A DNA stretch of 64,000 nucleotides from Bilabrum cf. latius (lineage: Eukaryota), in assembly GCA_965178125.1 (NCBI GenBank), contig OZ237738.1, positions 1,240,001 to 1,304,000 on the forward strand, given 5' to 3'. The translations under genes were made by a program, and so were the position numbers. This document shows, piece by piece, positions 1-63,842 of this stretch (within the stretch, counting starts at the first letter, position 1; every line of letters starts with the position of its first letter). A model generated the notes under the pieces. It was not told the origin of the DNA. It searched no databases and saw only the letters and a program-made list of their open reading frames with translations.

Positions 1-837
1 GGTATATTCTCCGGCAGCTGACGATCTCTTGGGCCACATGGTTCCTCGCCCAGGAACAGGCATGTAGACACAGTGGTAGCCACTCCACTGGCCTACTTGC
101 AGGTTCCCAATCGACTGGTTCTTCCACGGATGTCGCCGTACGTACCTCCTTTGGCACAACCCGACTGCATAGTCGATGAGTTGTGTCAACGGACTCAACG
201 CCGGCGCGGTTTCGTCCCTGACCTACGGTCGTCGACTCGACTACCGCTATCATCGACTGTTTCCACACGTCCTACAGATGGTCCCGACAACCAGTCAACT
301 TCAATGATCAAGGCATGGCGATGTAAGACTTGGCTGATAGTGGAGCGGACGCGCAACCGACGGTTCTGGTGCTTTCCAACCGACGTCGGCGCGCGGTCTG
401 CTCAGATTGGCCATGCTTTGCCCATGTCTTGATTGAACTGGAGACGAAGTGTGTCGAGTAAGCATCGTTGCATCATAATGCTAACGCCGAATGGGGTTCG
501 GGGTTGATGTGGCGATGCGTTCGAGACTCGAACACAGGCTCCGGTCTACCAACGCGAGGTTGCAACCGCCAGTGCGACCAGCAGCTTGCGAGGCATTCCC
601 TCGTCTCCTTCCTTAGGGAAGGGGGCGGGGCAGCGCGGCAGTGGCCGTTCCGGCTCATGCCGTTGTTTTGTCCCACCCTCCTCTCCCTGGTTTGGCTGAT
701 AGTGGAGCGGACGCGCAACCGACGGTTCTGGTGCTTTCCAACCGACGTCGGCGCGCGGTCTGCTCAGATTGGCCATGCTTTGCCCATGTCTTGATTGAAC
801 TGGAGACGAAGTGTGTCGAGTAAGCATCGTTGCATCA
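1..837 (+). mobile_element. 3' end of a Ngaro-type (DIRS order) retrotransposon, B1-A2-B2 split direct repeats
   Basis: 146-bp direct repeat at 330-475 and 692-837 ending in CATCA. The spacer starts TAATGCTAACGCCGAATGGGGTTCGG, nearly identical to the A2 start of the Ngaro at 30949. Abrupt GC-to-AT switch at 838. Confidence 0.8.
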
Positions 838-1843: not shown

Positions 1844-2360
1844 ATAAATTATAGAAGATTATAAAATATGTTTAGATATTAAAAAATTTATATCTATAGT
1901 GTATATATAAAAAAATGGCTCAACAAATGGTTCAGAATTTACCAGTAAGCATTAAGGCTCCTAAAAGCCTTCAAATGATAACCCCTGAAGATGCTAGTTT
2001 AGGAACAGAACTAGGTGTTCAAAAATATACCCGCCGAGAAATTAGACCATCATCTAATCAATCTAATTCTCTTCTTCCCCTTTCTTTCCCCGTTAATCCT
2101 ACTAGTAAAACCGTATCAAGGTTTATTCGTCTTCGTCATCGTATGACAGTTAGGCTACAACTAGAGCAAGCAGTACCAGCTCAAACTGCGGGAGGTGATG
2201 CTATTACCGCTCAATCTTATCTTAAATCTAGGTTTGGAACTAATTCATTACCTACCTTTAAAATGCTTCAAGGTGGTGTTTTAACAATTAATGGATAGCC
2301 TTTTACAGTAAAAGTTTATGAATGGGCTGAACCTACTGAAGTTATGAACAGTGAAGAAAC

Positions 2361-3403
2361 GGGGGGGACAACAGGTGGTGGTAGGTACACCAAGCGTTTA
2401 GGACGAGGGCTACGCTACGCTCGCCCCTCCTTTAAAGGCATATTTAGCAACTCAAGTGTTTCCCCTATAAACCTAAATGATTTCACAGGGGGTTCCCCAA
2501 GAACCCCTATAGAACCCCTCTATGTACCCATTTTCAGATATAAAATTTACTCCTACGAAGTAGGGGTAAATTGAAGAATTCTAATATTTAACCCCCTTAT
2601 AAACTCTAACAGCAAAGACAGAGATGTTTTAGTAAAGTAGGAAAAAATGAAGAAATTAACCAAGTGTCCAAAATATCTCTGTGTTTGCTGTAGGAACGGA
2701 AGGATGAATTCCCAAGAGACCAAGAGACCAACCGAGGATTTCCCCAAGAGAACAAGGTATTTTATCAAGAGACCGAGGTATGTTCCCAAGCGACAAACCG
2801 ATAAACCGACCGATGAACCGACCGATGAACCGACCAAGGATTTCCCAAGGATTTCCCAAGGATTTCCCAAGGATTTCCCAAGGATTTCCCAAGGATTTCC
2901 CAAGGATTTCCCAAGGATTTCCCAAGGATTTCCCAAGCGACTAAATTGTTCTCCGAAGCAACCAAACCGATTACCCAAGAGATGATACATTATAAGGAAA
3001 ACGAAAACGTATTTTAAGTCCCTTTGGAAAAGTCCCCCAAAAATTGAGAGATTTTACAGGTCAATTTTAAGAGACTTAGAAAGAATAAATATATTTTCCA
3101 ATTAAAATTAAATGTTGTAATTCCTATGATGCCACCATAAAAATTAAAAGGAAAACGAAAACGTATTTTAAGTCCCTTTGGAAAAGTCCCCCAAAAATTG
3201 AGAGATTTTACAGGTCAATTATAAGAGACTTAGAAAAAATAAATTAAGTTCCCAAGATGCTCGGGCTTTGCCCTCCGCTCTTTTGATATCTTTTTCAAAG
3301 ATTAAAATTAAATGTTGTAATTCCTATGATGCCACCATAAAAATTAAAAGGAAAATAAAAAACAAATTATAATTGTTTTCCAATTAAAAACGCAAAAATT
3401 GAT
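2361..3403 (+). repeat. Left terminal inverted repeat of inner virophage
   Basis: Reverse complement of ~18676-19606. Contains 9 copies of 11-bp CCAAGGATTTC and ~155-bp internal sub-repeats. Confidence 0.92.
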
Positions 3404-18675: not shown

Positions 18676-19606
18676 ATCAATTTTTGTGTTTTTAATTGGA
18701 AAACAATTATAATTTGTTTTTTATTTTCCTTTTAATTTTTATGGTGGCATCATAGGAATTACAACATTTAATTTTAATAGGGAACTTAATTTATTTTTTC
18801 TAAGTCTCTTATAATTGACCTGTAAAATTGACAAGTTTTTTGGGGACTTTTCGAAAGGGACTTAAAATACGTTTTCGTTTTCCTTTTAATTTTTATGGTG
18901 GCATCATAGGAATTACAACATTTAATTTTAATTGGAAAATATATTTATTCTTTCTAAGTCTCTTAAAATTGACCTGTAAAATCTCTCAATTTTTGGGGGA
19001 CTTTTCCAAAGGGACTTAAAATACGTTTTCGTTTTCCTTATAATGTATCATCTCTTGGGTAATCGGTTTGGTTGCTTCGGAGAACAATTTAGTCGCTTGG
19101 GAAATCCTTGGGAAATCCTTGGGAAATCCTTGGTCGGTTCATCGGTCGGTTCATCGGTCGGTTTATCGGTTTGTCGCTTGGGAACATACCTCGGTCTCTT
19201 GATAAAATACCTTGTTCTCTTGGGGAAATCCTCGGTTGGTCTCTTGGTCTCTTGGGAATTCATCCTTCCGTTCCTACAGCAAACACAGAGATATTTTGGA
19301 CACTTGGTTAATTTCTTCATTTTTTCCTACTTTACTAAAACATCTCTGTCTTTGCTGTTAGAGTTTATAAGGGGGTTAAATATTAGAATTCTTCAATTTA
19401 CCCCTACTTCGTAGGAGTAAATTTTATATCTGAAAATGGGTACATAGAGGGGTTCTATAGGGGTTCTTGGGGAACCCCCTGTGAAATCATTTAGGTTTAT
19501 AGGGGAAACACTTGAGTTGCTAAATATGCCTTTAAAGGAGGGGCGAGCGTAGCGTAGCCCTCGTCCTAAACGCTTGGTGTACCTACCACCACCTGTTGTC
19601 CCCCCC
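18676..19606 (-). repeat. Right terminal inverted repeat of inner virophage
   Basis: Mirror of the left TIR with only 3 copies of the 11-mer and lacking a ~45-bp inner segment. Confidence 0.92.
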
Positions 19607-20352
19607 GAAACCTTATCCACAATCTCACCCGTTGGACGCCCTGACACTGTTGGTGATTATCGTGAAGTAAGTGATACCCTTAAAAATCCTTTAGCTTGGG
19701 GTTAGGATGTTGGATATAGTGCCGGTGATAGCTTTAGTTATCGTGGAGCATATGGGAATGCTTTTACGACTGTAAGTGCTGATTTCGTTGCGGGTAATAG
19801 AGACCAAATTGATTGGACTATTGATTTTCAAGAAGCTATACCACTAAAAGGAGCAGATGTTGATGTGAATGCTAAATATTTCACCGGTGTGAGAAGCCTT
19901 CAGGTTGATTTAGATTATCACGTAAATGCCATTCAAAGACTGTGTAAGGCTAGTTTTACAAAAGATAACGGAGATATTAACAAAATAACGGGTTAGTCAA
20001 TTATAGGAGAAACAAATACGACCCTTCTTGTTGATGAAGTTGAATTTTAGAGTGGATACGCCCCCCCGACTCGTTGTATGTATAATATGCCTACAATTAA
20101 ATTTTAGTCTTAGGCGCCTGTCCCTGTACCTAAATCCGCAACTGAAAATTCTTTAACTTCTTTTGATTATCAATTATCCCGTGAGAATGGTATCCCTAGT
20201 GCTATTATGGTATGTGCCCGCCTTGTTGGTTGTGATGATAACCCTAACTGGGCTAATAGAACTTTACCAATTAGAAGAATAGGTTTCTCACTCAATGGAA
20301 GCGCTGAGGAATTAGGGGCTGTAGATAATCCACACGAATTTTATAAAAAAAA

Positions 20353-25040: not shown

Positions 25041-25860
25041 TTACATTTTATAATTTAAACTTTATAATATGTGTTTAAAATGGCTTAAAAATATATTAAA
25101 TATAATATACTATAGGAAATGATAAATTATGAAAATGTGTTAAATCAATTAAATATATGCTTTGGTAAAAAGTATGATAACCCCATTCAATCCGTGAAGT
25201 ATCTAGAAAAGGTATTTAACGGTAAGCCCATAACTACAAAGAACCTTTATAAACTTGTTTCAGGTTTAAAAATGGATATAGAGATTAGAGAGAAAGACGA
25301 TATAAAGGTCTATTATCTAAGTAGGAAAAAAGAGAGTTTTAAAAGGGTTTGTTTAGAATATAAAGATGGTTCATTTAAAGCCGTCTAGAGGATGAAACCT
25401 TTATTTGTGCGGTGCCATAAATCTATGGTTGTTAAATTAACCGATAAAGCCGAAATAATTGAAAAAGATAAATATAGAGTTGAGAGCCTAACCGATTATC
25501 ATTCAAAGAAATATTATCTTCATTACACCATTCACGAATGCCCAGAGGATGAAGATATCAAAGAATGGAGCTTAAGGCTGAGTATAGCAAGTGATGAATT
25601 ACACGACGAGAACCCATCATTAGATGTAATGAAATATGGAATCAGACAAACAGCCCTTCATTTCTTTACAATGTTTAATATGATGATAGATAGCCCACCA
25701 GATATAACCCCAGAGGAAGCGGTATTTATTGAAGGTTCAACGCGTGGCGGGATTCAATATCACAAGAAGGGACAATATGAGGAGTTTATCACCTACGATA
25801 TAAATAGTCATTACCCCGCCATTATGTCATCTAATTCACTACTACCATATGGAAATCCTG

Positions 25861-28800
25861 GGGATCTCCAACGGGCAGTGTTGCACTCCACGACGCTGCG
25901 GGGAACGGCCGACCCAGCGACAATTCTGCATCTACGCCTGTTTGCGCTGTGGCACAGCATTCCGACTCTGCGCCAGGAAGAGCTGCTGTCGCACCTCTCC
26001 GCCCACGTGGAATTGCAATGGTACTTCTCGCACCGACTAGCAGCCTCGATGCACTCATCCCCGCCACCGGTCGACGCTACACCCGCTCATCAGCCACCCC
26101 GTGAACCTCCTGTGTCATCTTCTGCCTCACCGCAGCCTGCGTCTTCAATTGACCCAGTTTCACCGGGCGCAGGCACGGCAGTGGACTCCGCGGTCGTTCG
26201 CTCGCACCCAGTGGAGATTTTGTAGCGTGAGGCCTCTGCACCTTCAATCGCTGCAATTCGAATGCAGAATTGGTTTTCTGATGATTTCTTGGCAACGTTG
26301 ACCTCGATCTTTCGCCAATCCGCGTTCATGCCGCGGTTTTGCTAGGCTGACGCGCTTCATTTGGACGCTAGCGGCCGCGATTTCGCTGCAGAACTGGCCC
26401 GTGCCCTGTTTGGTCAGGCCGTGACGAGAGCCAAGATTGAATCGGCTATTTTCTCGTTCACGAGCCGGCTTCATGCAGCTCTGCCGATGAGCAATGCCAG
26501 TTTTGGGAAGTTTGATGCGTCCAACTCGGAGTCGTCTGCTGCAGGCGGACGAGAAAAGTAGGTGCCATCTAGCGAGTTACTATGCACTATTTACTCGGCT
26601 ATTTCCTTTGCTTTAGGCTGTGTGCTCGTGCGCGCTGCTTGCGTGCATTCGACGGCGTCCTTGCCGTCCTGGTTGCCGCAGGGCAGCAGCTCGTGGTCGT
26701 GTCCAGCATCACTAGTGCCCGATTGGAAAACCCTGGGGCAGGTTCGCAATGATTTTCTTCGTTTGGTTAGTGCTTCCGGGGCTTCATCTGCATCGGCGTC
26801 CCGACTAGAGGTGGTGTTTGCCGCTGTGTGTGTGATACCACGCGGAAGTTCAGCCTTTGAGATGCTCTCCTCCCATGCTTGGCGCCATACAGGCGAACGC
26901 TGTGACGTTGAGATTCGTGACCTTGTTGGGAATGAGATTCCTTCGTGCTCTTCTGGCGACTGCATGCGTCTCCTACAATTGCTGCATCCGTGGGCCACTG
27001 AGGCATGCAGATCAGGCGAACCTGGCCTCGTGCGCGGACTGCTACAGGGAGTCCAGGCTGACATGCAGGCGCCGTCCCGTCGAGCAGCACTGTCCCGCCA
27101 CTTCGACCCCCGCGGGGGCAGTGGAGGCCGGGGCAGTGGAGGCGGGGGCAGTGGAGGCTCCAGGCGCAGCGGGGGTGACAGCGACCAGCCCAGTGCCGAT
27201 CGTGGCGGAGGTCGACACCGTCGAGGCCGTGGACGTGGCGGTGCAGGCCAGCAAGGTGGCCAGCACCAGCGTGCGGACCGGCAGGACGGGGGTTCCACCA
27301 GGAAGTCCAAGGAGCCTTCACCTGACCCCCCCCCACGAGGTACGTCACGTCAGAGCCAGCCCAGCACTCCAACACCAACACTGCCGCAGGGGCGTACGCA
27401 GACTACCACCACATCGGACGCGTGTGCTGCTTCCACACCACCTGTCATGTCAACGCCCGCGCTTCACCCAGTCCTGGTGGCCCTAGCGCGCCCTAAGCGA
27501 CCGCAGCGGCCGCCCACGGCGTCATCCACGAGGCTGCCAGGTAGGACGGACATCTCTCCAGCATTCGTTGACTGGGCATATCCAGCTCCGGATCCAAGCC
27601 ATGAGTGGGCAGGGACGACAGCACCCTCCGTCGAGGACTTCATACAGCGAAAGGACGATCACCAGCGTACCAGAGAATGTCCCGGCGAATTCGTGGAGGC
27701 TCCAGCTGCGACGTGGGACCGTGAGCGGCTCCACCTGAAGGTTCACGACGACCCGCTGGCATTCACGCCACGCAAGTACTTCGACAAGGTGCCTCGCTAG
27801 ACTGCAACACTGCGGACCCGGCGGGAGGTTCTGTTTGGCGGCCGCACACCGAGGAAGGCCCCGTCCCTTGCCGAGTTTAAAGCCCTCCCACGAGTCGAGC
27901 GTGTACTGGCAGCACTGAACTATGGTTGCCCCCTAGCCATCGTGGACGAGGTGCCCAAAGAGCACGATCTAGACTACAAGGACCGTAAGCTGTCTCCGGA
28001 AGAAAAGTGGGAGATCGCCTGCGAGATCGGGCGCTCCATGCGGGCTGGCGAGCGTGACTTCGTGTCACCCAAAGATTTCGACACAGCCCGGGCCCGGCCG
28101 CTGGTGATCCCCAAGAAGGACTCGACAAAGCTACGGTTCCTTCAGGACTCCTCACTCAAGGTGAACGGCCAGCGTACCGGTCTGAACAAGGCCATCGACT
28201 ACAGTGCAGCCACGCCTGTGCAGCAGACGAGCAGCATGGACGTGCTGCGCTCGGCAGCCGCAGCAGTTCGATCCTGCCCCAAGCGTGCCAGCGGATACGT
28301 CGTCGACATTTCCTCGTACTTTCGGGTCCTGCCGGTGGCAGTGGAGGATCTCCAATACAACCTGATCAAGCTGCCCGACGGGCGCATCGTGCAAGATTTC
28401 AGGCTCTCTATGGGCAGCTCATCATCTCCCGCCTTCGCAACTACGATCAGTTCGGCTTTGGCCCAAGCCCTCGAGGAGCAGTCCATTGGCAGGGCCATGC
28501 GACCCGGACGGAGACACAAGCAGAAGCAACGACGCCGGAAGCAGCAGCACGCCAACGCCCAATCCAGCACGACGGACCAGGCGCCCCAGGCGAACTCGTC
28601 AGCAACGTCCACCCCGCCTGCCGCTAGCACGACAACGGGACAGGTCAAGACGGCCCAAGACTAGTCCCGCCATTGGTAGGTCGAAAATGAGGTGTTTGTA
28701 GATGACTTTGCCTGCCTCGGCGGAGATCACGAAGTCGATGCATGGGCAATTCGAGCCATGGGGCAGCTGGACTCCACAAACTTCCCCGTCAGCATCTCGA

Positions 28801-30584
28801 AAGCATTGAAGCAAGGGGCCCCAGCCCCGGTGTTCGAGTACTTGGGCCTCACCTACGACTTGATCAAACACGAGGTGCGGTGCCCTAAGGACAAGGCCAA
28901 CGACGTCCTGCGCAGACTGCACGAGGCACTCACGACGAAGGGGATGCTGCTGTCTAGCTTTGAGACCTTGGTCGGCAAGTTGTCCTTCCTGTCGGGCGCA
29001 CTTTATGGTATGCGCGGTGCTCTACGTCCCCTGTATGACGCCACGGGCTGGGCCCTTCACAAGTAGGCCAGCCGGTCACGACCAGGTGAGGTGTGGGTCC
29101 CCACCTCCTTTGTGTCCAAGGGTGGCTTCACAGTTGGGGAAATCCTCGAGGGATTCCAGGTGGCTATCCAGCGCAAAGGCGGGCGCAGCTTTCCGATGCG
29201 GGGCACCATTGACTGTCCCATCCTTCGCACTGATGCGTCGGTGACAGGCTACGGCGCCGAGCTGCTTCTCCACGACAAGGACGGCAACATCACTTCGCAC
29301 ACCGGCATCCAGGGCACTTGGCCGCATCGCCTAGAGGCGAAGGATGTAGCGGCGGCAGAACTTGCAACATGTTTGTTGGCACTGGCGCATTGGCGACAGC
29401 ACCTGCGTGGACGTGTGGTGCGTTTGTGGTGTGATAATGATGCTTCCGTGTAGCTGATACGCTACGGCAGACCCAAGAGCCACATCATGGCAGCCTTACT
29501 TCGCCCTATCTTCGTACTGCAGACAACGCAAGATGTGCAGATTCACGTGAAACACATTCCTGGCGAGGACAACGTCGTTGCGGACGCTTTGAGCCGCGGC
29601 TCACAGGAGGCATACACGCACCTGGACGCGGTGTATCAGGTCGACTGTCCCACGCCGATCTGGAACACCTTGTACAAGCACGACCATTTCACGCTGGTGG
29701 CCACTCTGGACTCAGTGGGTTGCGCACGGCGTGGGGGCACTTCGACAACTTCCTCACGTGGTACGACATCGACCGCAGTTTCATGGACGGGCATCTTCCA
29801 GCAGCTCGCAGACTCTTCGCGTTCAGGCTCAATGCAGCGCTCTCGAGATTCGCAGTCTTCTTAGGGGAATGTTCGCCTCTCAGTGGCGGCACCATCGCTA
29901 CATACACCAGAAATGCCTAGCGAGTCGTCATCGAGTCCACAGGAGCGTGCGGCGTCCCACGGTCAAGCCAGCTCGACAGCATCCTCCGGTACTACCACAA
30001 AGCATCGCCATCGGCGCACCCGTTGCGTCGATCTTCAGCCCCACTCCGCGCAATCCGACGGTGTTTCTCGACAGCCGGTTGCAGCACAACAGAGTAGGCT
30101 GCTCGGACAGCTGTCTGTCTCTGCTTCTGTGGGGGCCTCCGGCTGGGAGAGCTCGTCGGTGCGTCCAGACGACAAGCCGGCCTCCAATGGCAGCAAGTGC
30201 AGTTCATCACGCGAGACGGACGCATCCATGGTGTTGCCATCCGCCTGGGCCTCCACAAAGCCGACGGCCCAGCCAAGTTCTCCATCCAAGCCGTAGAGCC
30301 CATCGCAGTCCATTGCAGAGCCGGACGATGGGCAGTCACAGGCAGCAGGTTCTGCGGCGTGCGAGCCTTCGTGGCGTGGGCAGCAGCGAGCCACGCCCCA
30401 ACTGCAGGCGCAGACGAAGACTACGCCCGGTAGCTGGCGCTCAGCTGCCCCACGTCAGGGCCAGTCTTCGTGGCGAACACGAAGCCGATCGTCAAGGCGC
30501 AGGTAGTACGGGCGCTCCGCAGCTTCTGCTCACGAGAAGTTGCAGGAGCGGTGCACGGACATTCCATCCGCATCGCGGCAGTGA
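25861..30584 (+). CDS. Ngaro gag-RT-RNase H polyprotein frame
   Basis: Track ORFs 26361, 26562, 27942, 28692, 29091, 29487 and 29883 share a frame split only by TAG. VVDISSYF, MGSSSSP, FVDD, TDAS, WCDN and ADALSR motifs. Confidence 0.85.
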
Positions 30585-30778
30585 TGTGTTTGGACCGTGC
30601 TGGGGTCGCCTTCGAGGTCATTAGGCGATTTGGCAGATGGAAGTCGGCATCTGCATGCGAGGTGTACTTGCGGGGCGTCAGGGAAGGTTTGCCTCCTCTG
30701 GAGCTCGGCGGCAGGAGCCTCGATTTGAACAGGCCAGTGTGGGTGCTGGCCAGCGCGCTGCGGCTGAACTTGGAGTGA
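29720..30778 (+). CDS. Ngaro tyrosine recombinase (start uncertain, overlaps pol frame)
   Basis: GLRLGEL, HSIRIAA, GRWKS...VYLR catalytic motifs; TAG read-through; ends TGA. Confidence 0.85.
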
Positions 30779-32178
30779 GCCACACAGCCGCAGCGTACAA
30801 GACATGGCGGTAAGATTTGGCGGAGTAGTGCACGTGCTCTTCCCAGCCCCGGTCAGTCCGGTCAAGGGTCGCGCACAGGCACAGCTTTGTCAGGTCTTGC
30901 CATGTCTGATTGTTAACGAGACTAGGTTGCGCGTACACTCTGGCATCATGATCCTAACGCCGGATGGGGTTCGGTGTTGATGCCAGAGTGGGAGCGCGTG
31001 AACGTCTCGTTGGGTTCCGATGGCGGTTGCGACCGGGAAGGTGCGACCAAGCCAACGGATTGCTTGCGATGACGCGCATACCCTCTCTGTGTTCAGGAGA
31101 GGGGCGGAGATTGGGTACTTTTTGCCCACCCTCCCAACCCCCTCCTCCTCGGCGGAGTAGTGCACGTGCTCTTCCCAGCCCCGGTCAGTCCGGTCAAGGG
31201 TCGCGCACAGGCACAGCTTTGTCAGGTCTTGCCATGTCTGATTGTTAACGAGACTAGGTTGCGCGTACACTCTGGCATCAATAAATGTAAGGTGAGCCAA
31301 GGGAAATGCGACCCGAATATCTTTCAAATGATGAAGGTATTTGAAAATGAATTTACTTATTATGTCTTTACAGATATGAATATGTTTGTTAAATATGGTT
31401 GTGAGATAGAGATGTCAAGCGACGAATTTAATTTTATGACCTATGATAAATTTATCAAAAGTGAAACACTTTTTAAATCCTATGTCTCAATGTTCTACAA
31501 ATTAAAAAGCAAATCATATCTAGCAAAAGAAATATTAAATTCATTATGGGGTAAATTATGTAGTTCCTCTAAAAAGACAATTACATCAAAAGACGATAAA
31601 AAAATAAATATAGATAAATTTGATATTGACCGTGTAGAAATGGATAATGACGGAGAATTTATTTATCATTTAAAACATAAAGTACCCTTTAAATATAGCT
31701 GGGGAAAATTGAAACCTTTTATTCTGGCATATGGAAGACAACGATTGATGAAGAAAGTGAATAAGAACAACGCTAAACATATTATACGAATTCACACCGA
31801 CAGTATCACATTTAACAAAAGATTAAATTTTAAAGTAGGTAAAGAATTAGGTGAATATAAAAAAGAATAGATAAATGAAGAAGGATAGAAATTAATTATC
31901 CACGGATAGAATGATTTAATGGTCGTAAATGAAAAAGAAGAAATTATATCAAGGAAAGGAAAAAAAGGCGGTTTAATGCTTTGAATTAAATATTTATTAA
32001 TTATATAATATATGATTAATATTATTAGTAATATCTTTGTTTAGTATGCTATTAAGAAGGCATTAAAGAAGGTAAAAAATAAATTAATGAAGAATCCAAA
32101 TAATAAAAGACTCTATGAAGAATATAGAAAAAAAACGGCTCACGCTATTAAAAAATTATCATTTTATTAATTATACAA

Positions 32179-55021: not shown

Positions 55022-55142
55022 AGTATCAGCAGTTGCAGCGGATAAAGATTGCCCCCTCACTTGTTCGGGATGTTCCGCGTGCGCGGCGCCACATGGTTAC
55101 AACCGCTTAGCAAGCCGTTCGGGCAGAGCCATTCGGTCGACC

Positions 55143-55701
55143 ATGGCAGCCTCTGGAGCCGGAGAAACTGGTAGCACCGATGCCGCAGCAAAATCCAAGG
55201 CAATAAAGATGGCGTCAGAGGCGGCGGCATCCTCACACAAATCAATTGTGAGTGATTGGCCTGTCTCAGTTGGTGTGCAGTTGCATGTATTAATCCAGCA
55301 GTTCAAATTCCTCTCACCCGGATAGCGGCGCAGTCAGTGGAAAAAAGAAAACTACTAGTTTTAGGTATGAACTCGGATTCAGTGTGTATGCATTGCTAGC
55401 TTTGGTGTGTACGGTGGTTGCTGCTTCCATCCATGTTTTTCTTGCACAGGCGATGCAACTGTAGGGAAGACAGCACTCGTAGCAATGTTTGCCTCCAAAG
55501 GCTCAGAGTATCCAAATTCGTATCAGATGGTAAGGATTTCAAAACTGCCAGCGCTGCACTGCGTCAGACGCGCGCCTGCAACACTAGAGTGTGCATGCTG
55601 GGATGATCTCTCGCAGACAACCGCCATGAACGTTAGGGTTCGAGGCGTACCAATGAATGCGGATGGGACCGAGCAAGTAGATTTGTTTTTGATGGACCAC
55701 G
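55143..55701 (+). pseudogene. IFT27: 5' part of IFT27/RABL4-like small GTPase gene (three introns), cut by Ngaro insertion
   Basis: KLLVL-GDATVGKTALVAMFASKGSEYPNSYQM-TTAMNVRVRGVP...VDLFLMD with GT-AG introns. Confidence 0.75.
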
Positions 55702-56305
55702 TCAATGGCACCCCTACTGACGAATACAGAGCATCCATGTACAGTGATGTTTGGGCCGATAGTGGTATACTGATCGGATCAATTCCGAGTACGAGCTGAG
55801 CGAGACCAGCGCTCTCACTTAGGGGAATTCAGAAGAAGATAAAGGAAATAATGCTCAGCCAGCAGAGTGCGCAATGGAAGCAAAGCCGGGCGATCGTGGC
55901 GCGAATGACCACTCGTATGGCCCCAACGGTGAGGCGGAGGGTGAACGCTGTGGGTGGTGTTTTCGATGTGTTTCAAGGTATGGCTGTTGAACACATGTCG
56001 AGCTTCTCGGAGCCTGTCGTGCGCGAGGCTGTGAACATGCTAAACAAAGAAGGGGCAGATGCGCAGCGGGCTCTGTTGGGCAGCTGCGTACGCGGCCACA
56101 CGCCGGTCGCTTCCCTGGGCGCAGGGGCTGCCGTTATGGGCGTGTTCAAACCGACCACGACGCCAGACGTGGAATCGGGCCTGCGTGGCGCTCTGGAAGT
56201 GGCAGCAGGGTTCTCAAAGGACGATCTGATGCCCGAGGACCATGTTCGTCGGCGAGCGCGGCGACGGGTGGAAACTCAGACCAAGATGCGACGGGCAGCA
56301 ATGGG

Positions 56306-58198
56306 GTGCTCCCACTCTGGGGAGCACCGGTGATCCCGGTACCATCCGGGGCATCAACAACAGCACCATTCACGGGGTCAAGGCCTGAACGTGTAGCCGG
56401 GGGGCCGATGGGAGCGCACTCACTGGGCCGGGGCATCATGGACGGTGGCGGGTTTGGGTGGAAACTGCCTGCCCCAAGCGGGGGGGCCGGTGCAGGGGCG
56501 ACTGCTACCTCAGGCCATCCGCCGAGCGAGCTGGGCCTCTTTGATTTTGGGGGCGGATTCAGCCATGGTGGAGTGACTGCGGCCGATGCTGGGGCGGGTG
56601 GCAAACCAGCGGGAGGTCCAACGGCAAGCCGCGGTGCCAGCGCGGTGTTTGGGGCGCAGGCGTCGATGGGCACCATCTCGGGCGCAACGCTGGGAAAAAG
56701 GGGGAGAGCGGAAGAGGTGGGGGAAGCACAAGCTCCCTGGGAGGCCATTGTGGCGGATTCGGAACGTCGCACCAAGGCGGCAAGGCGCGAGCAAGAGGTC
56801 GAGGGAGCATCCGCGGGAGCAGGAGAGGCGACCGCGAGTGACGCGATCGACAAGCGAATTCAACAGGCGGTTGCGGCCATGGCATCGGGTGAGCCCAATG
56901 GTACGTTGTAGTTGCTCCGTGCCCTTGCGCTTGAGTTAAATGCCCGGCCCGAGCACTCCACCCAGGCGATTAAGTCGTCAGCCGGCGCCTGCAAGAAGTC
57001 ACCATACCAGGGCCAGGTCGGAGCAGACGATGGAGACGGCGCCAAGGAAGTGCATAATTCCATTCCCACGGCGAAGGGAGTTGACTCTTTGTTCTACGAC
57101 ACCGTACGGTCTTAGGAGGTGCTTCAATTTAGGGACAGTGCACGGTATTTGGCCGAACTCGGGGAGGAAGGCGAGAGAGCTAAGGACTTGGCCTCAGTGG
57201 CGCTGACGAGTGCGGACAAGGCAAAGATTTCGTTACTTCGGATTGAACGCCCCGCGCAGATAATGTTCGCTTCTATGGCGAGTGCGGCTGGTTTTCGCCG
57301 GGAGTCAGGATCTGGCCGCAGCTTTCATGTGGCACCGGTGCTGGAGGAGGCGGGTGATTTGCTCATGCCGGACGGGATCAGGCAATTTGCGAGTAAGTGC
57401 GGGTAGCACGTGTTGTCGGGAGTGGCAGAACTGGAACAAGGCAACATTTTTCGATTACCCACGATATTGACCAGATCGGTGTGTGGGGCGCTCGAGTGGG
57501 TCGTGGCAGGGAGCACGTCGTTGCTGAAGGTGGTTATCACACTTGCGACACTGCTGCACCAGGATAAGCATGCGGAAGCCAGGGCAGTAATGAGCAAGCT
57601 TCACGAGGCGTTGGAGATTGCAGTGCGAAGAATGTTCTTGGGCTTAGGGATGGTCCTTCATGCGGCAGCAGTCCGCACGGCAGGTGGAGGCAACGGGGAC
57701 ACAGCCAATACGGGTCAGCATTTCGTGTTAGCAACTGCTCTGCGCATGATTTTGATACATAGGGTGGCACCAGTGGGGAGAATGGATACTCCTGCGGTGC
57801 TTCGACTGTGGTAGTTGCGGAGCGAGAACGAGACCCCGCTGCGGATGACGCAGACTCAGGTGGGGCCCACGTGGGAATTACTGGGACTGAATCCGGCAGG
57901 CAACCATAGCGCTATGGCGTGGGAGGATGTGACAGCCGCGATAGACAAGTCAGCATTGGAGCGAGCGAAGCGGGTGGCAAAGGAGCATGGGGCCGCAGCT
58001 GGAGGAGCGGGGGCAGCGGCAAAACGGTAGTCAGCGAAGGCCAGCAGCAGCAGCAGCAGCAGCAGTAGCGCGAGTGCGGGTGGACAAGAGTCGCAGCAGG
58101 AGTCAGAGCGCCAAAAAGGGACGACATCGGGGCCCAAAACGTAGGCGGAGCCCCGTACCTCCCCAAGACGAAGTGGCCGACTAGCGGGGAATGGGTGA
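56306..58198 (+). CDS. Ngaro ORF1 (gag-like)
   Basis: Five abutting same-frame track ORFs separated by TAG; ends TGA. Confidence 0.65.
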
Positions 58199-58199
58199 C

Positions 58200-60590
58200 G
58201 CGGCCCGAGCCAGGGGAAGGGCTGCAGTAGTGTAGGCATGTGCACTATCTTCGGAAGCAGCGCAAAAAATCCTGGCTCAGCAGAAGACTCCGACCCTACA
58301 GCGTGGTGAGCCGAGCCTGCGGACACTGGATGGGCGGTGCATTGTGACGGACATCATGGAACACGCGGACGAATTGTTGGACTAGGTTGCATCTGCAGGC
58401 CCCTCGAGACGATGGCACGAGGTGCAGATGGAAGCAGCCGGCTATTCTGTGGACAATGACGGTGATGCGGGAGCGGGGATGACTGGGGATGCGCCGTCAG
58501 CATTGGGTGCGGACGGGATGTGGTAGGCTTGGGCACGATGCCTGGCAAAGCGGGACAAGATTGACTTGCGGTCATTCCCACCGGGCTAGGCACCATCATC
58601 TGCTTTGGACGTCTGGTATGGAACGTTGTCACACTGGGAGCGTAGGGGCGAACTGCAGCAGGGGGAGCGATGGGCAGCACGCTAGCCGTGTACGCTGTCA
58701 CCTCGTGGAGCATGGCAGGCACATTTGGCTCGTTGTCGACGCTGCGGGGCGCGGGGCGCAGTGGAGCCCGATTGTGTAGCGGGCCGGGGGTTTGTTGGAC
58801 TGGCACGACATGGGCTTCGGGCGGAGGCAGTCTTGAAGGTGTTGGGGGCGCAGCCGGTACGGGCTGACCCGAAGGACTTGCCGGCGGACGAGGAGGATGT
58901 AGTCCCGTTCGTGGAAGCAGCAGCGAGTGCAGGCAAGATTCGACCGGTGGAGGGCGCCGCGGTCTAGGTGACGCCTATGTTCGTTGCCAAGAGGACCGCA
59001 ATCGAGGTACAGCAGCGGGAGGGTCAGACACCACGCTTGGTGCAGCGGGAGGACACGACTGGCAAGCAGCGCCTAGTCACGGATATGAAGCGCTCGGGCG
59101 CGAACGAGGCATTTCTTGACTTGCGTTTCCGGTATGGTGATTTTGCTCGGCATTTAGCAGAGCGCGTGGGACGTGACAGGCACGAATGGGGGGCAGCCTT
59201 CGATTTCAAGGCGGCATATCATAGTATAGCGCTGGCACCGGGGCTGCAGCGATGGATGGCAGTTCGCGGAGTGGGTGGCAGCATGTTTTAGTTTGTGGTC
59301 TTGTCGTTTGGTTGCAGAATGGGCTGTTTTGTCGCATCAGTAGTGTTGGCAGAGTGTTTAGCGGGGGTGCGACTGCGCACCGCACATTGGGCTTTTGGGT
59401 ACATTGATGATGGCTTTCTGTCAGCACGTACGGAGGCCCGCACTATGTAGTTGTTGTGGTGTGCCGTGCTTGTAGCGCGGGGGATTGGCATGAGGATATA
59501 GCCTAGCAAACTTACCTTTCCAACATAGGTGATTGAGTTCCTTGGGCTAAAGATTACCCTGGGAGCCCACTTGAAGGTGACACTGCGCTCGGATCGATGG
59601 CCACGGATCCACGCAGTGCTGAGGACCGTTGAGCGAATGCGAGCTTTCAACATGCTAGCAACGAGTGCGCTGGCGGTCAAGGCTGTGGAGAAACTGGCAG
59701 GACAGTTGGGCGCGGCTGCGGCAGTAATCCCCCACGCTTCGCAGCACGTGTTTGCGATATACTAGGCGGCTGCAAAGGCTCGCAAAGGTGGTAGGCACAT
59801 CTGGACGGCAGAGTTCAACGAGGAATTTGAGTGGTGGCTGACATGTAGGGACCGCGGTATCTTGACAGCGGCAGCAGCTGCACCGATATACCCGTTGCCG
59901 GAGGGGAGAGCATCCGTGTTTTGTGCTGACGCGTCAGCCCATGGACTGGGTGCAATGTGGCGCCGAGGCAATGGTGATTCTGGCTTGATGCAAATGGGTT
60001 TCCACGAGGACATGCAGTTACTATCCAGTACGGCACGCGAACTAGCATCACTACGAGCTTTTTTGTCAGGACCAGGCTAGTTGGCGAGGAGCCAGACTTG
60101 CCCAGAGGCGCTCTTCGTGCTGTCAGACAATCAAGCCCTGCCAAATTTGCTGCGGAAGGGCGGCTCGATGAAGGCTGGGTAGCGAGATGAGCTGCGAGAG
60201 ATTGGAAGGCTGGCTGAGAACTTGGGATACGTGATCTTCCCCGTGTGGTAGAGGCGAAGTACACCGATCATGGTGGCATGCGATAGATTGAGCAGGGTGG
60301 AGGACGGTGCTGGTCAACTGGTGTAGACGGCGGGGCAGCGCGTGGGCAAAACGGGGTTTGTCTCGGCGGCAAGGGCGACATCTGACTCAACTTTTCATGC
60401 ACCATTTCATCTTCGCAGGACCATTTGGGGAGCTGATCCCAGTGACTGGACGAGCAGGCTCAAGTGCTGCGGCACAACGGCGAGCAGCGGTGGCGGCGAC
60501 TAGGACCCTGATGCTGTAGGAGAGTCAGCAGCTCGGCAAGGGAGCTCTGGACGCGCGCAGGCGGAATCTGACCATGCAGGCGGAACTTGA
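58200..60590 (+). CDS. Ngaro RT-RNase H (boundaries approximate)
   Basis: FDFKAAY, SFG, YIDD, FLG, ADAS, SDN and CDRLSR motifs; TAG read-through. Confidence 0.85.
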
Positions 60591-61635
60591 GGTCGGGGAT
60601 CCGGTGGAGGCCATGTGGGCTTTGCTGACGGAGTAGTGCGCCGCCGGGTTGAAGTATGCCACAGTGTTGCGATTGTTCCAAGCGCAAACGGCGTGGTTCA
60701 GGTCAGCGGAGTTCCCGCGTACCCCACTCGCAGACGTGGAGTACAGGCAGGTCAAACTGGCCCTGCTCGGCTACAAGCGTAGATGTGCCGGGGCGACGGA
60801 TCCGGACGCGGTACGTGCCCTACGTGTCCTGGTGGACAACCCTGTAACGTTGCGAGCACTAGTGATGATGGCCTGGTAGCTGCAGGCAGAGTGGGATTCG
60901 ATGTGGCAAGGCCCAGCTGCGCTGGCCCGTGCGGACTACAACTCAACACCAGCGGTTCTCGATACATTTATGTGCTGCTATGTGGGGACATTCTGTGGCT
61001 TGGCCCGGTGGCCAGATCTGGTGCATCTGGCAATAGGGGAGATAGAGTGGACTGCAGCGTCTGATGACAACGAGGTTGTTCCCGTGGCACTGATTGGGTG
61101 GCAGCGGTACAAGTCGCGGGTGCTCGGCGGCAACCCCGAGCAGCGCCCGCCAGCGGTCATTCCATGCTTGCCGGATGGATTCGAGGAGTTGTGCCCGTAT
61201 CGGTGGCTGAAGTGGTGGGTATCAGTTCGGTAGCCAACACAAGGGCAGCGCGGGGAAGTATTCGCCTCTCGAACACGGGCTGCGCACAGTGCCACGCTGC
61301 AGTGGATAACAGCGCAAGGGATTCCTGTGCACCGCAAGGGGGAGGGTGTGTACGCCTTCAAGAGTGCGGGAGTGTCAGCATTGCGCCAGACGGACCCAAC
61401 CAAGGACGAGAAGTACGTGCACGGCCAGGCTGGGTGGTCTCTGCCCAACATGCCAGCGGTGTATGATCGTTACTCATTGATGGAAGCGGCAAGGGTTACG
61501 AGGAGTGGGATTCTTCGGGCTATGGTGGGAGCTGGCTCCATCCCAGAACTTCTGAAGACTTGGGAATCCCAACGCAGGGAGCTTCACCGGAGCCCAGTGA
61601 GCAGTGGTGGGGGTGAACGGGATTCAGGGCTCTAA
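60307..61635 (+). CDS. Ngaro tyrosine recombinase (start uncertain)
   Basis: GLARWPDL, LCPYRWL, YAFKSAG, AGW...VYDR; four same-frame track ORFs; ends TAA. Confidence 0.75.
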
Positions 61636-63842
61636 CTGGGCCAGTGGGTGTTCCTTGCGGCGTTCGATGGGCGAACAGCCAAAAGGGGGGCCCAGTGTAG
61701 ATCCCGTGGCCAGTGGCAGGTAGTCCCCATAGCGGCTTGAAAGGTCCGTGCCGCCTGCCCAGTGCCCGGGGAAGCACCAGCCAAAACCAAAGCGCCACGG
61801 AAGGAGGAGATTACGAGGAGCAGGTACTAGGTACGAGAGTGGAAGCTGAGGGCAGGACAAAGCGGCCAGCCGGGCCTAGGCGGCACGGAGACGGCCGTGC
61901 TAGCGACAGACGAGTGGGCGACGGTGGGTAGCGGCGCACGAGTGGCGCGTGGCGGGAGAGGGAGAGTGCTGGGGGAGCGAAGCATTGAGCGGTTGATCGA
62001 CAGATCCACATTACCAACCATCATGATTCAATGGCACCCCTACTGACGAATACAGAGCATCCATGTACAGTGATGTTTGGGCCGATAGTGGTATACTGAT
62101 CGGATCAATTCCGAGTACGAGCTGAGCGAGACCAGCGCTCTCACTTAGGGGAATTCAGAAGAAGATAAAGGAAATAATTTTTACTTTTATAGAATTGTTT
62201 CTTGTCTTGTTGGCCCCATTTCCTTCGGATATGGATGGGGCGGCATCGCGGCGGAGGCCGGGAGGTGAGGGGGGACCAGTAGTTGGCGGACAACAGAGGG
62301 GCCTACAGCTGAAGGGAGGGGTGCCAGGCGGATAAGGTTTACTCAGCGAGACAGGGCGTCTTAGGGGCGGGTAAGTGTGTGTGTGTCACTGCTGCCCGGT
62401 AGTGTGTGTAATATTCTCTTGGGAGGGGGGCGGAGGCAGACCGCTCCTCCTCCCTCCGCACTCAGTACCAGCATGAACCAGCCCTCTTTTCTGTTCATGT
62501 GGACCCCCTGACAACGGGGGGACCACGTGGCACCCACGCAGGATGGCGGCGCAGATTCGGAGGGTACCAACACTCATACCTAGCTACCAACATTTAAGCG
62601 TTGCGGAGGGCAACGGAACGGGGCCAGGGAAGCTGCGTGCGTCTAGCCATCTAGAACACGTGGACGAACTGGTGGTGGCCTTTGCCACCATCCCATTTCA
62701 CCAACCAGATGAGGCTCCGTGGTCGCATCTGGTGCCGATGGCCACTGTTAGCAGGACCGTTGGTGGGTGGCTTGGGGGGCCAGGGACTTGGCTGAGTCAA
62801 GTAGGCGTGGGAGTAGGGGTGGGTGCGGTCAGTATGAGGTCCGTGCCTCATGTTGATCGCTGTAAATCCGGCTATAGGTCGGAAGCAACCCACCCTCCCG
62901 GTTGCAACAGTGGGGACGGGTGTGAGGTGGCCACGCGTGAGGTGGTCATGAGACTGGGAGCAGAGGTGTGGTCCGTGCCGTAAAATCCCCCATGTGGAGC
63001 ACCTCTGTTTTTCTGGAAGCACAAAGAACCGCGTTGCGGGCCCAGGAAACTTCTGTCCTTTGGATGGCTCCGTGGCCGAAGGGGGACAGAGTGACCTGCA
63101 CAGCCGAGAGGAGAGCCTGAATCTCGGATCGACCCTGGGACAGTCGCACCGGCGACACCCACCGAGAGAGCGAGGCGAGATCCTGCACAGCGTACGCTGC
63201 AGTGGAGGACCACTGTGGTGCTGCAAGAGGCACGGCAACGTGCGGACAGCAGCCGGACCCCGTATCCTCACAGAGGGTAAGGCAATGGGAGCCTGAATAG
63301 GAGCGGACCGGGTGACGACTGTGCTGGGGCTGCGGTGAGCATACAGGACCGTGTCGAGCGTGGTGGGCTGGGCGGGATGTGCGAGCGGTGATGCCCTAAC
63401 TCGATCGAGTTCAAGATTTTTTTCTTCTTTTTGCGTGGTGGCGTCCCCTAGGTCGGGGCGGCGTGGGTGTTCCTTGCGGCGTTCGATGGGCGAACAGCCA
63501 AAAGGGGGGCCCAGTGTAGATCCCGTGGCCAGTGGCAGGTAGTCCCCATAGCGGCTTGAAAGGTCCGTGCCGCCTGCCCAGTGCCCGGGGAAGCACCAGC
63601 CAAAACCAAAGCGCCACGGAAGGAGGAGATTACGAGGAGCAGGTACTAGGTACGAGAGTGGAAGCTGAGGGCAGGACAAAGCGGCCAGCCGGGCCTAGGC
63701 GGCACGGAGACGGCCGTGCTAGCGACAGACGAGTGGGCGACGGTGGGTAGCGGCGCACGAGTGGCGCGTGGCGGGAGAGGGAGAGTGCTGGGGGAGCGAA
63801 GCATTGAGCGGTTGATCGACAGATCCACATTACCAACCATCA

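Follow-up and report, generated by a model that had tools for sequence, protein, structure and literature searches.

Introduction

The closest described relatives of the elements considered here are Ngaro retrotransposons (DIRS order), for example those of Cafeteria burkhardae, which, in the available text of PMC8547959, are alike in their A1-ORFs-B1A2B2 layout, in their RT, RNase H and tyrosine-recombinase (YR) content, in the occurrence of solo AB units and in their insertion into AT-rich virophage-like DNA. Integration by YR retrotransposons has so far existed only as a model. A parallel is DIRS-1 of Dictyostelium, likewise a YR retrotransposon with an internal copy of its circle joint, for which single-stranded cDNA intermediates were demonstrated and for which the model still closes with an unobserved duplex circle (PMC7192593, accessible portion).

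Recombination of a folded single strand is described from other systems. At integron attC sites, the substrates of IntI, the folded strand is swapped singly and replication finishes the reaction (PMC4792948, as far as its accessible text goes). Such sites resemble the joints described below in having four boxes, two arms, an unpaired spacer and a variable terminal loop, and they share a single reactive strand (here a conditional assignment), a crossover at the outer box, a minimal target consensus and homogeneous junctions (PMC4792948; 10.1101/2022.09.11.507474; available parts of both). The attP(+) site of CTXphi, recombined by XerC/XerD, is a folded single-stranded donor that undergoes one strand-exchange pair with presumed replicative resolution, as would the joints described here (PMC3442271, accessible text). 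Strand-biased circularizing integrative elements are YR elements that also handle one specific strand, although they consist of bacterial DNA, rely on chromosomal copy-out and lack an RT (PMC9345347, available text).

No description of a hairpin at the Ngaro joint was found in the literature covered, a scope outside which lie the founding papers of Goodwin, Poulter and Butler, which might mention end structures. The accessible text of PMC8547959 makes no mention of a hairpin, stem-loop or secondary structure, and in the available text of the other papers "hairpin" is absent (PMC9210276, PMC6681497, PMC3783388, PMC4157794, PMC13465315) or used in other contexts (PMC2632668, PMC5633606).

Hairpins at the joints of three Ngaro elements

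The window analysed is a stretch of 64,000 nt from Bilabrum cf. latius (contig OZ237738.1, positions 1,240,001 to 1,304,000, forward strand). It contains three elements, in each of which a hairpin straddles the junction of two direct repeats, B1|A2. The hairpin consists of an outer stem, a 7-nt and a 6-nt spacer, an inner stem and a variable loop. The features of the three elements are as follows.

330..475, + strand: B1 repeat of element 1, a non-coding, array-filled member of family F1; identical to 692-837 and placed by the family layout
462..475, + strand: 5' arm of the outer stem (box 1) of element 1, crossover after 475
476..482, + strand: 7-nt top spacer, the first bases of repeat A, where every intact left end starts
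483..498, + strand: inner stem-loop of element 1, with box 2 AAC at 483-485 and box 3 GTT at 496-498; the alternative register has the TGGGG loop
499..504, + strand: 6-nt bottom spacer of element 1
505..518, + strand: 3' arm of the outer stem (box 4) of element 1, paired with 462-475 over 14 bp including three G.T
692..837, + strand: B2 repeat, right end of element 1; empty site with gap 0 (L031)
25856..31280, + strand: element 2, a 5'-truncated copy of the autonomous family F2, matching L033 1940-7364 at 99.2%
29441..30775, + strand: YR frame of element 2, uninterrupted if TAG codes for Gln, R-K-H-R-W-Y set, predicted Cre-like fold; placed via the offset to L033
30819..30948, + strand: B1 of element 2, with the 5' arm at 30936-30948 and the crossover after 30948
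30949..30977, + strand: 29-nt loop of element 2 (7-nt spacer, inner stem-loop, 6-nt spacer)
30978..30990, + strand: 3' arm of the outer stem of element 2, pairing perfectly with 30936-30948
31151..31280, + strand: B2, right end of element 2
55702..55852, + strand: A1 of element 3, a member of family F4, lacking 4 bases at its start
57933..60590, + strand: RT/RNase H frame of element 3 (RVT_1, E 2e-10)
60292..61635, + strand: divergent YR-like frame of element 3; no Pfam match, identified from its position and alignment
61644..62023, + strand: B1 of element 3, with the 5' arm at 62014-62023 and the crossover after 62023
62024..62080, + strand: 47-nt loop of element 3 with 7/6 geometry (62031-34 / 62061-64) and 3' arm 62071-62080; weak fold
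63463..63842, + strand: B2, right end of element 3

An earlier note on this DNA had proposed a conserved hairpin at the B/A junction of all three elements. Its coordinates and pairings are correct. In elements 1 and 2 the outer stem encloses 29 nt in both cases and the + strand folds well below dinucleotide shuffles (element 1, z -3.9 as RNA and -5.0 as DNA; element 2, -5.8 and -6.3). The stem of element 3 was overstated: its arms form 9 of 10 pairs around the 47-nt loop, and its stability is not above that of dinucleotide shuffles (z -0.5 as RNA, +1.3 as DNA). In element 2, a variant at 30983 seen in other runs converts G-C to G.T.

The inner stem-loop can adopt two registers, and the TGGGG loop of the earlier description belongs to only one of them. 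In the other, AAC at +8 pairs with GTT six bases 5' of the 3' arm. This register reaches the full score in F1-F4, is lower in energy than the TGGGG register in F2 and F3 and higher in F1, and agrees with the geometry of the distant families described below. Exact matches to the loop motif number 101 across the genome; a reversed control has none.

Families and coding content

Nine families, F1-F9, were compared in this genome, of which F3 and F5-F9 were found by YR and RT searches. As in Ngaros, split direct repeats A1-B1-A2-B2 are present; RT, RNase H and YR reading frames with internal repeats downstream of the YR occur in F2, F4-F7 and F9; and Pfam found no methyltransferase domain in the scanned pol frames. 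The F2 element measures 6,660 bp in the layout A1-ORFs-B1A2B2 and encodes RT, RNase H and a YR with the R-K-H-R-W-Y catalytic set. The copy in the window lacks the first 1,235 bases and has lost its A1. F1 has no RT, RNase H or YR reading frame and is filled by a 284-bp tandem array. F4 is a distant family, and no Pfam match was obtained for its YR frame. The predicted model of the F2 YR (pLDDT 80) has Cre as its closest, though weak, fold match (TM about 0.35). The nearest relatives of the F2-F8 YR profile carry the motif GHSFRIGAA, which we take to be Ngaro-type; F4 and F9 are more distant.

The reading frames appear broken under the standard code; this appearance was discounted, as reading TAG as Gln opens them, and the YR frames end at TAA. 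Throughout the genome (L130; window 57933-60590), reading continues past TAG, for which Gln suits the alignments, and stops at TAA; the same is seen in a long host-type ORF.

Many F1-F3 copies lie within AT-rich DNA that includes a type-B polymerase fragment. Non-coding families retain the hairpin site. Non-coding derivatives carry arrays of variable length with repeats of 284 bp in F1 and 88 bp in F3 (L031 4346-8837, L034, L035, L039, L048 736-9191). F1 and F2 have about 20-26 bp between A2 and B2, against a 1.3-kb spacer there in F4 (window 62179-63462). On both sides of element 3 lies the same 646-bp sequence, a perfect duplication (window 55056-55701 and 63843 onward; L032 1843-2488). The right end of the element is exact and its left end 4 bases short, and the duplication is absent from 13 other F4 flank pairs; it may reflect two joints made separately or an assembly artefact. 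The truncated left end of element 2 (window 25856) falls at the same polymerase-gene base as an F1 insertion on another contig (L027/L190), a coincidence of sequence that suggests insertion followed by deletion. Inverted repeats of about 1 kb (88.5%) at window 2360-3403 and 18676-19607 bound an AT-rich 17-kb block and probably mark the two ends of an endogenous element of virophage or polinton type.

Crossover point and element ends

The ends of the elements are uniform to the base. Among 99 sightings of left ends, 94 have the family head beginning at +1, the first base of the loop; since the F1-F3 loci were found via a motif beginning at +6, deeper truncations are invisible in this count. The other five comprise one subfamily variant also at +1, one internal fragment and three F4 ends short by about 1-6 bases. 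Without exception, the 91 right ends finish on the final base of the 5' arm, and in each of the 25 empty sites found among 53 complete elements the gap is 0. Uniform ends and gap-0 empty sites place the crossover at the top of the outer stem. In the chemistry of YRs such as Cre and Xer, a 3'-phosphotyrosine forms on the arm side, so that the arm lies 5' of the cut; this polarity holds only on the + strand.

The right end had been called an invariant CATCA, which is too strong. CATCA terminates F1-F4, four further families end in GTCA, TTCA (two) and CTCA, and the ninth ends in a T run. What eight families of this genome keep is TCA opposite TGA, with the neighbouring pair being A-T, G-C, C-G, T-A or T.G depending on the family, and in a distant second set of families the crossover follows TTAA. 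Most families share no base with their target. F9 (L133 6898, L132) shares the T run across the joint in a DIRS-like manner and has a longer hairpin (z -5.4).

Target sites

Targets are degenerate and biased. T occupies position -3 in 56 of 69 F1-F3 targets (p 4e-14), C occupies -2 in 9 of 12 F4 targets, and second-set targets are TTNA-like, with T, T and A at -4, -3 and -1. At these bases, the target mimics the arm of the outer stem. The right flank of second-set targets resembles box 2, at a spacer of 7 as well as 6. A 6-bp target spacer was considered as a mark of a folded donor and dropped because spacers of 6 and 7 score alike. A rule requiring the first base of the target to be paired with the one opposite +1 was likewise set aside; it fits F1-F4, fails in F5 and is weak overall. 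C is found at target +13 in 20 of 57 F1-F3 right flanks (p 4e-5). Ngaros are also found inserted into box 4 of the A repeat of another Ngaro, on either strand (L243 3466 and about 9360, L182, L223 226).

Fold strength and covariation

The earlier note had inferred a single-stranded fold from compensatory changes, and covariation across families supports this in permutations, shuffles and RNAalifold. Among the nine families of this genome, folds are strong in F1, F2, F3 and F9, and in F7 as RNA, and folding is not better than in shuffles in F4, F5, F6 and F8. The anchored stem score of F3, F5 and F8 is unexceptional along their own elements (0.25, 0.22, 0.61). When arms were swapped among the nine families, the own B arm fitted its own A best, a fit matched in 4 of 362,880 permutations. 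Keeping only one of F1-F3 gave 1-2 of 5,040 permutations, and the five weak families alone gave 1 of 120. The 7/6 geometry is complete in F1-F4 and partial in F5; F6-F8 have 7/7, and F9 differs. The count of 11 G.T against 0 A.C in the nine-family set is biased by the scoring and is not usable as a test.

A profile of related YRs led to 126 loci from metagenome and genome contigs, most of them from one assembly. In seven loci compared, the YR is 24-30% identical to that of F2 over the matched stretch. The A1-B1A2B2 layout was found in 38 of these loci, 35 of which have TTAA at the joint and form 17 families at <80% identity. Of the three that were dropped, L265 and L296 do show the hairpin, and L293 was a false call. 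All 17 families follow the order TTAA, 7 nt, box 2, loop, box 3, 6 nt (7 in one), TTAA, and z is -2.7 or lower in 12 of them. RNAalifold predicts two 7-bp stems with both-side changes at 7 of 14 pairs. Pairing reaches 92.0% (80.6 in shuffles) and there are 33 both-side cells, compared with 10.2 in shuffles and matched by 0 of 500. Pairing, both-side cells and covariation score exceed 500 of 500 shuffles, a control that ignores relatedness, and the number of further pair types is not above shuffles in this set (182/500). The four-box pattern is present in 59 of the 126 loci and in 0 of 126 shuffled ones.

In another clade, four loci whose repeats are long and merged (L318, L327, L291, L326) gave no clear hairpin where the repeat ends, and scanning them for the geometry stayed near shuffle level. 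Inside their repeats, the related loci L291 (3490) and L293 (6655) share a 7/6 hairpin with a compensatory change. In viral contigs, neither the loop motif nor the YR profiles gave a match, and one fungal-type profile gave none in genome contigs; another profile returned 13 loci, in none of which the joint could be located.

These data leave little room for the idea that repeat turnover or base composition produced the fold incidentally. The weak folds of F4, F5, F6 and F8 and the lack of a clear joint hairpin in the four loci of the other clade would fit it, but z values down to -6, the four-box pattern at 59 loci and none of the shuffled ones, and the compensatory changes across families do not. 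It is largely refuted and very unlikely.

Which molecule folds, and how it is exchanged

The reading preferred here, to which we assign a probability of about 0.65, is that the B|A joint is an attC-like donor site of the YR, used as folded + strand DNA of which one strand is exchanged. The analogy with attC and CTXphi drawn in the earlier note is kept as the best-supported function, a likely one, by crossover position, YR polarity, spacer size, uniform ends and the lack of permuted copies. What the sequences show directly is a covarying fold, the place of the crossover, exact and uniform ends, biased targets and the near lack of permuted copies; that the folded molecule is DNA, that one strand is exchanged and that replication resolves the product is inferred.

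A duplex site is one alternative. In this case, boxes 1-7-2 would serve as a normal YR core, boxes 3-6-4 would be an inverted copy with an accessory role or else a cruciform extruded by a supercoiled circle, and both strands would be exchanged by a heterology-tolerant YR, as in Tn916-type elements. It would agree with the accepted DIRS model and its duplex circle (PMC7192593, accessible text), with the TTAA-N7-TTAA reading of the second set, with the resemblance of the target right flank to box 2, and with the use of boxes 4-6-3 as a - strand target in L243 and probably L223. Complementarity, however, tracks the hairpin and not the dyad: at bases -5, -6 and -7, 17, 11 and 12 of 17 second-set families are complementary to the hairpin partner, against 3, 3 and 2 of 17 for the duplex-dyad partner, and boxes 1 and 2 of F1-F4 form no dyad at all. 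Two-strand exchange over unlike spacers would, by our reasoning, leave the spacer on about half of the right ends, yet it was found on none of 156. In 91 ends matches reached at most 3 nt, and among 65 second-set right ends (68 minus three junction variants) a 5-nt match occurred once and 6-7 nt never. Sequence homogeneity has served in the same way as a test of single cleavage at integron attG sites (10.1101/2022.09.11.507474, available text). Biased heteroduplex repair could be another source of uniform ends.

The order of the repeats is also at odds with a duplex circle, which has two identical joints, so that about half of the copies are expected to be permuted. Of 25 F2 joints, 24 continue into B2 in the standard order, the 25th is cut inside A2, and none is permuted. 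Permuted copies are nearly absent overall; L299 is a candidate. Other candidates were rejected: L243, and probably L223, is really an insertion into box 4 of another element, and in L267 and L282 the TTAA lies in the target. Tandem forms occur as well (L119, C28, C6). On balance, the duplex site seems unlikely.

Equally unlikely is a hairpin that acts in RNA, in packaging, template switching or priming at B1|A2, while the YR recombines an ordinary duplex joint. Strand bias is compatible with it. At fixed positions of the second set, G.T exceeds A.C on the + strand (13 vs 3, p 0.02); this excess is confined to the inner stem, where 7 of 10 G.T fall in a single column, and the outer stem has equal numbers (3 vs 3). 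As the + strand is also that of the RNA, the bias cannot tell RNA from DNA. The favoured strand is the sense strand, a transcript has both arms together only at B1|A2, the non-coding families retain the hairpin, and a priming hairpin was proposed for DIRS-1 (PMC7192593, accessible portion). A role in RNA nevertheless leaves several features unexplained: the end of the stem right at the crossover, the internal loop with the length of a YR spacer, the four short invariant boxes mirrored by the target, and the lack of permuted copies. The variant of this idea in which the RNA cleaves itself, for which the earlier note suggested an assay, found no support: Rfam has no match near the gathering score at the hairpin, no hammerhead core is shared, and a hammerhead-core word lies near only 1 of 8 joints.

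A model of integration

If the folded + strand is the donor, boxes 1 and 4 would form the outer stem and boxes 2 and 3 the inner stem, with the 7-nt/6-nt spacer partly unpaired and the loop free. The YR would bind the two stems as the arms of an arm-spacer-arm duplex and cut 3' of box 1. This one strand would then be exchanged with a duplex target of degenerate sequence, leaving replication or repair to complete the insertion. One difficulty is that first-strand cDNA is the - strand, so a + single strand has to be assumed. The cDNA of DIRS-1 is reportedly antisense as well. A speculative solution is a gapped circle that is single-stranded at the terminal B2|A1 joint and nowhere else, with + strand and no - strand opposite, this + strand joint having been copied from the internal B1|A2 template. 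Such a circle could account for the identical internal joint going unused, and for the use of the + strand, the precision and the order of the repeats. Whether Ngaros in general integrate by attC-like folded single-stranded DNA, one-strand exchange and a gapped circle instead of the standard duplex circle appears to us evenly balanced.

Comparison with known systems

Compared with the Ngaros of Cafeteria burkhardae, the host here reads TAG as Gln, and the description of the joint goes down to single bases and adds a covarying fold, statistics on the ends and a bias in targets (PMC8547959, available text). DIRS-1 differs in its inverted LTRs and ICR, and its model leads to a duplex circle and to a trinucleotide that is shared (PMC7192593, accessible part). 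CTXphi depends on host recombinases and one specific site, dif (PMC3442271, available text), whereas the Ngaro encodes its own YR and inserts almost anywhere.

The joints differ from attC in several respects. The boxes are TCA/TGA or TTAA, and the AAC/GTT triplet is absent from the crossover. The reactive strand would be the sense strand, the inner stem has no conserved extrahelical base, and a whole eukaryotic retroelement is inserted and not a cassette. Nor does the locus combine an IntI-family integrase with a cassette array; its YR is of the retroelement type, and the integron integrase ranks only 26 among the fold matches of the YR model.

Implications

The hairpin is real and conserved, and a YR probably recombines it as a folded strand in this known group of retrotransposons. 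As a short substrate, a strand and the bond to be cut can now be named, the question becomes addressable with oligonucleotides and one purified protein. The hairpin also provides a handle for annotating the exact ends of Ngaros and their non-coding derivatives. If Ngaros in general integrate through a folded strand, their YR would place any cargo that has a folded joint of 55-70 nt at nearly any site, neither duplicating nor losing bases. If the preferred reading is true, folded-strand recombination, known from integrons and vibrio phages, would operate in eukaryotic genomes too.
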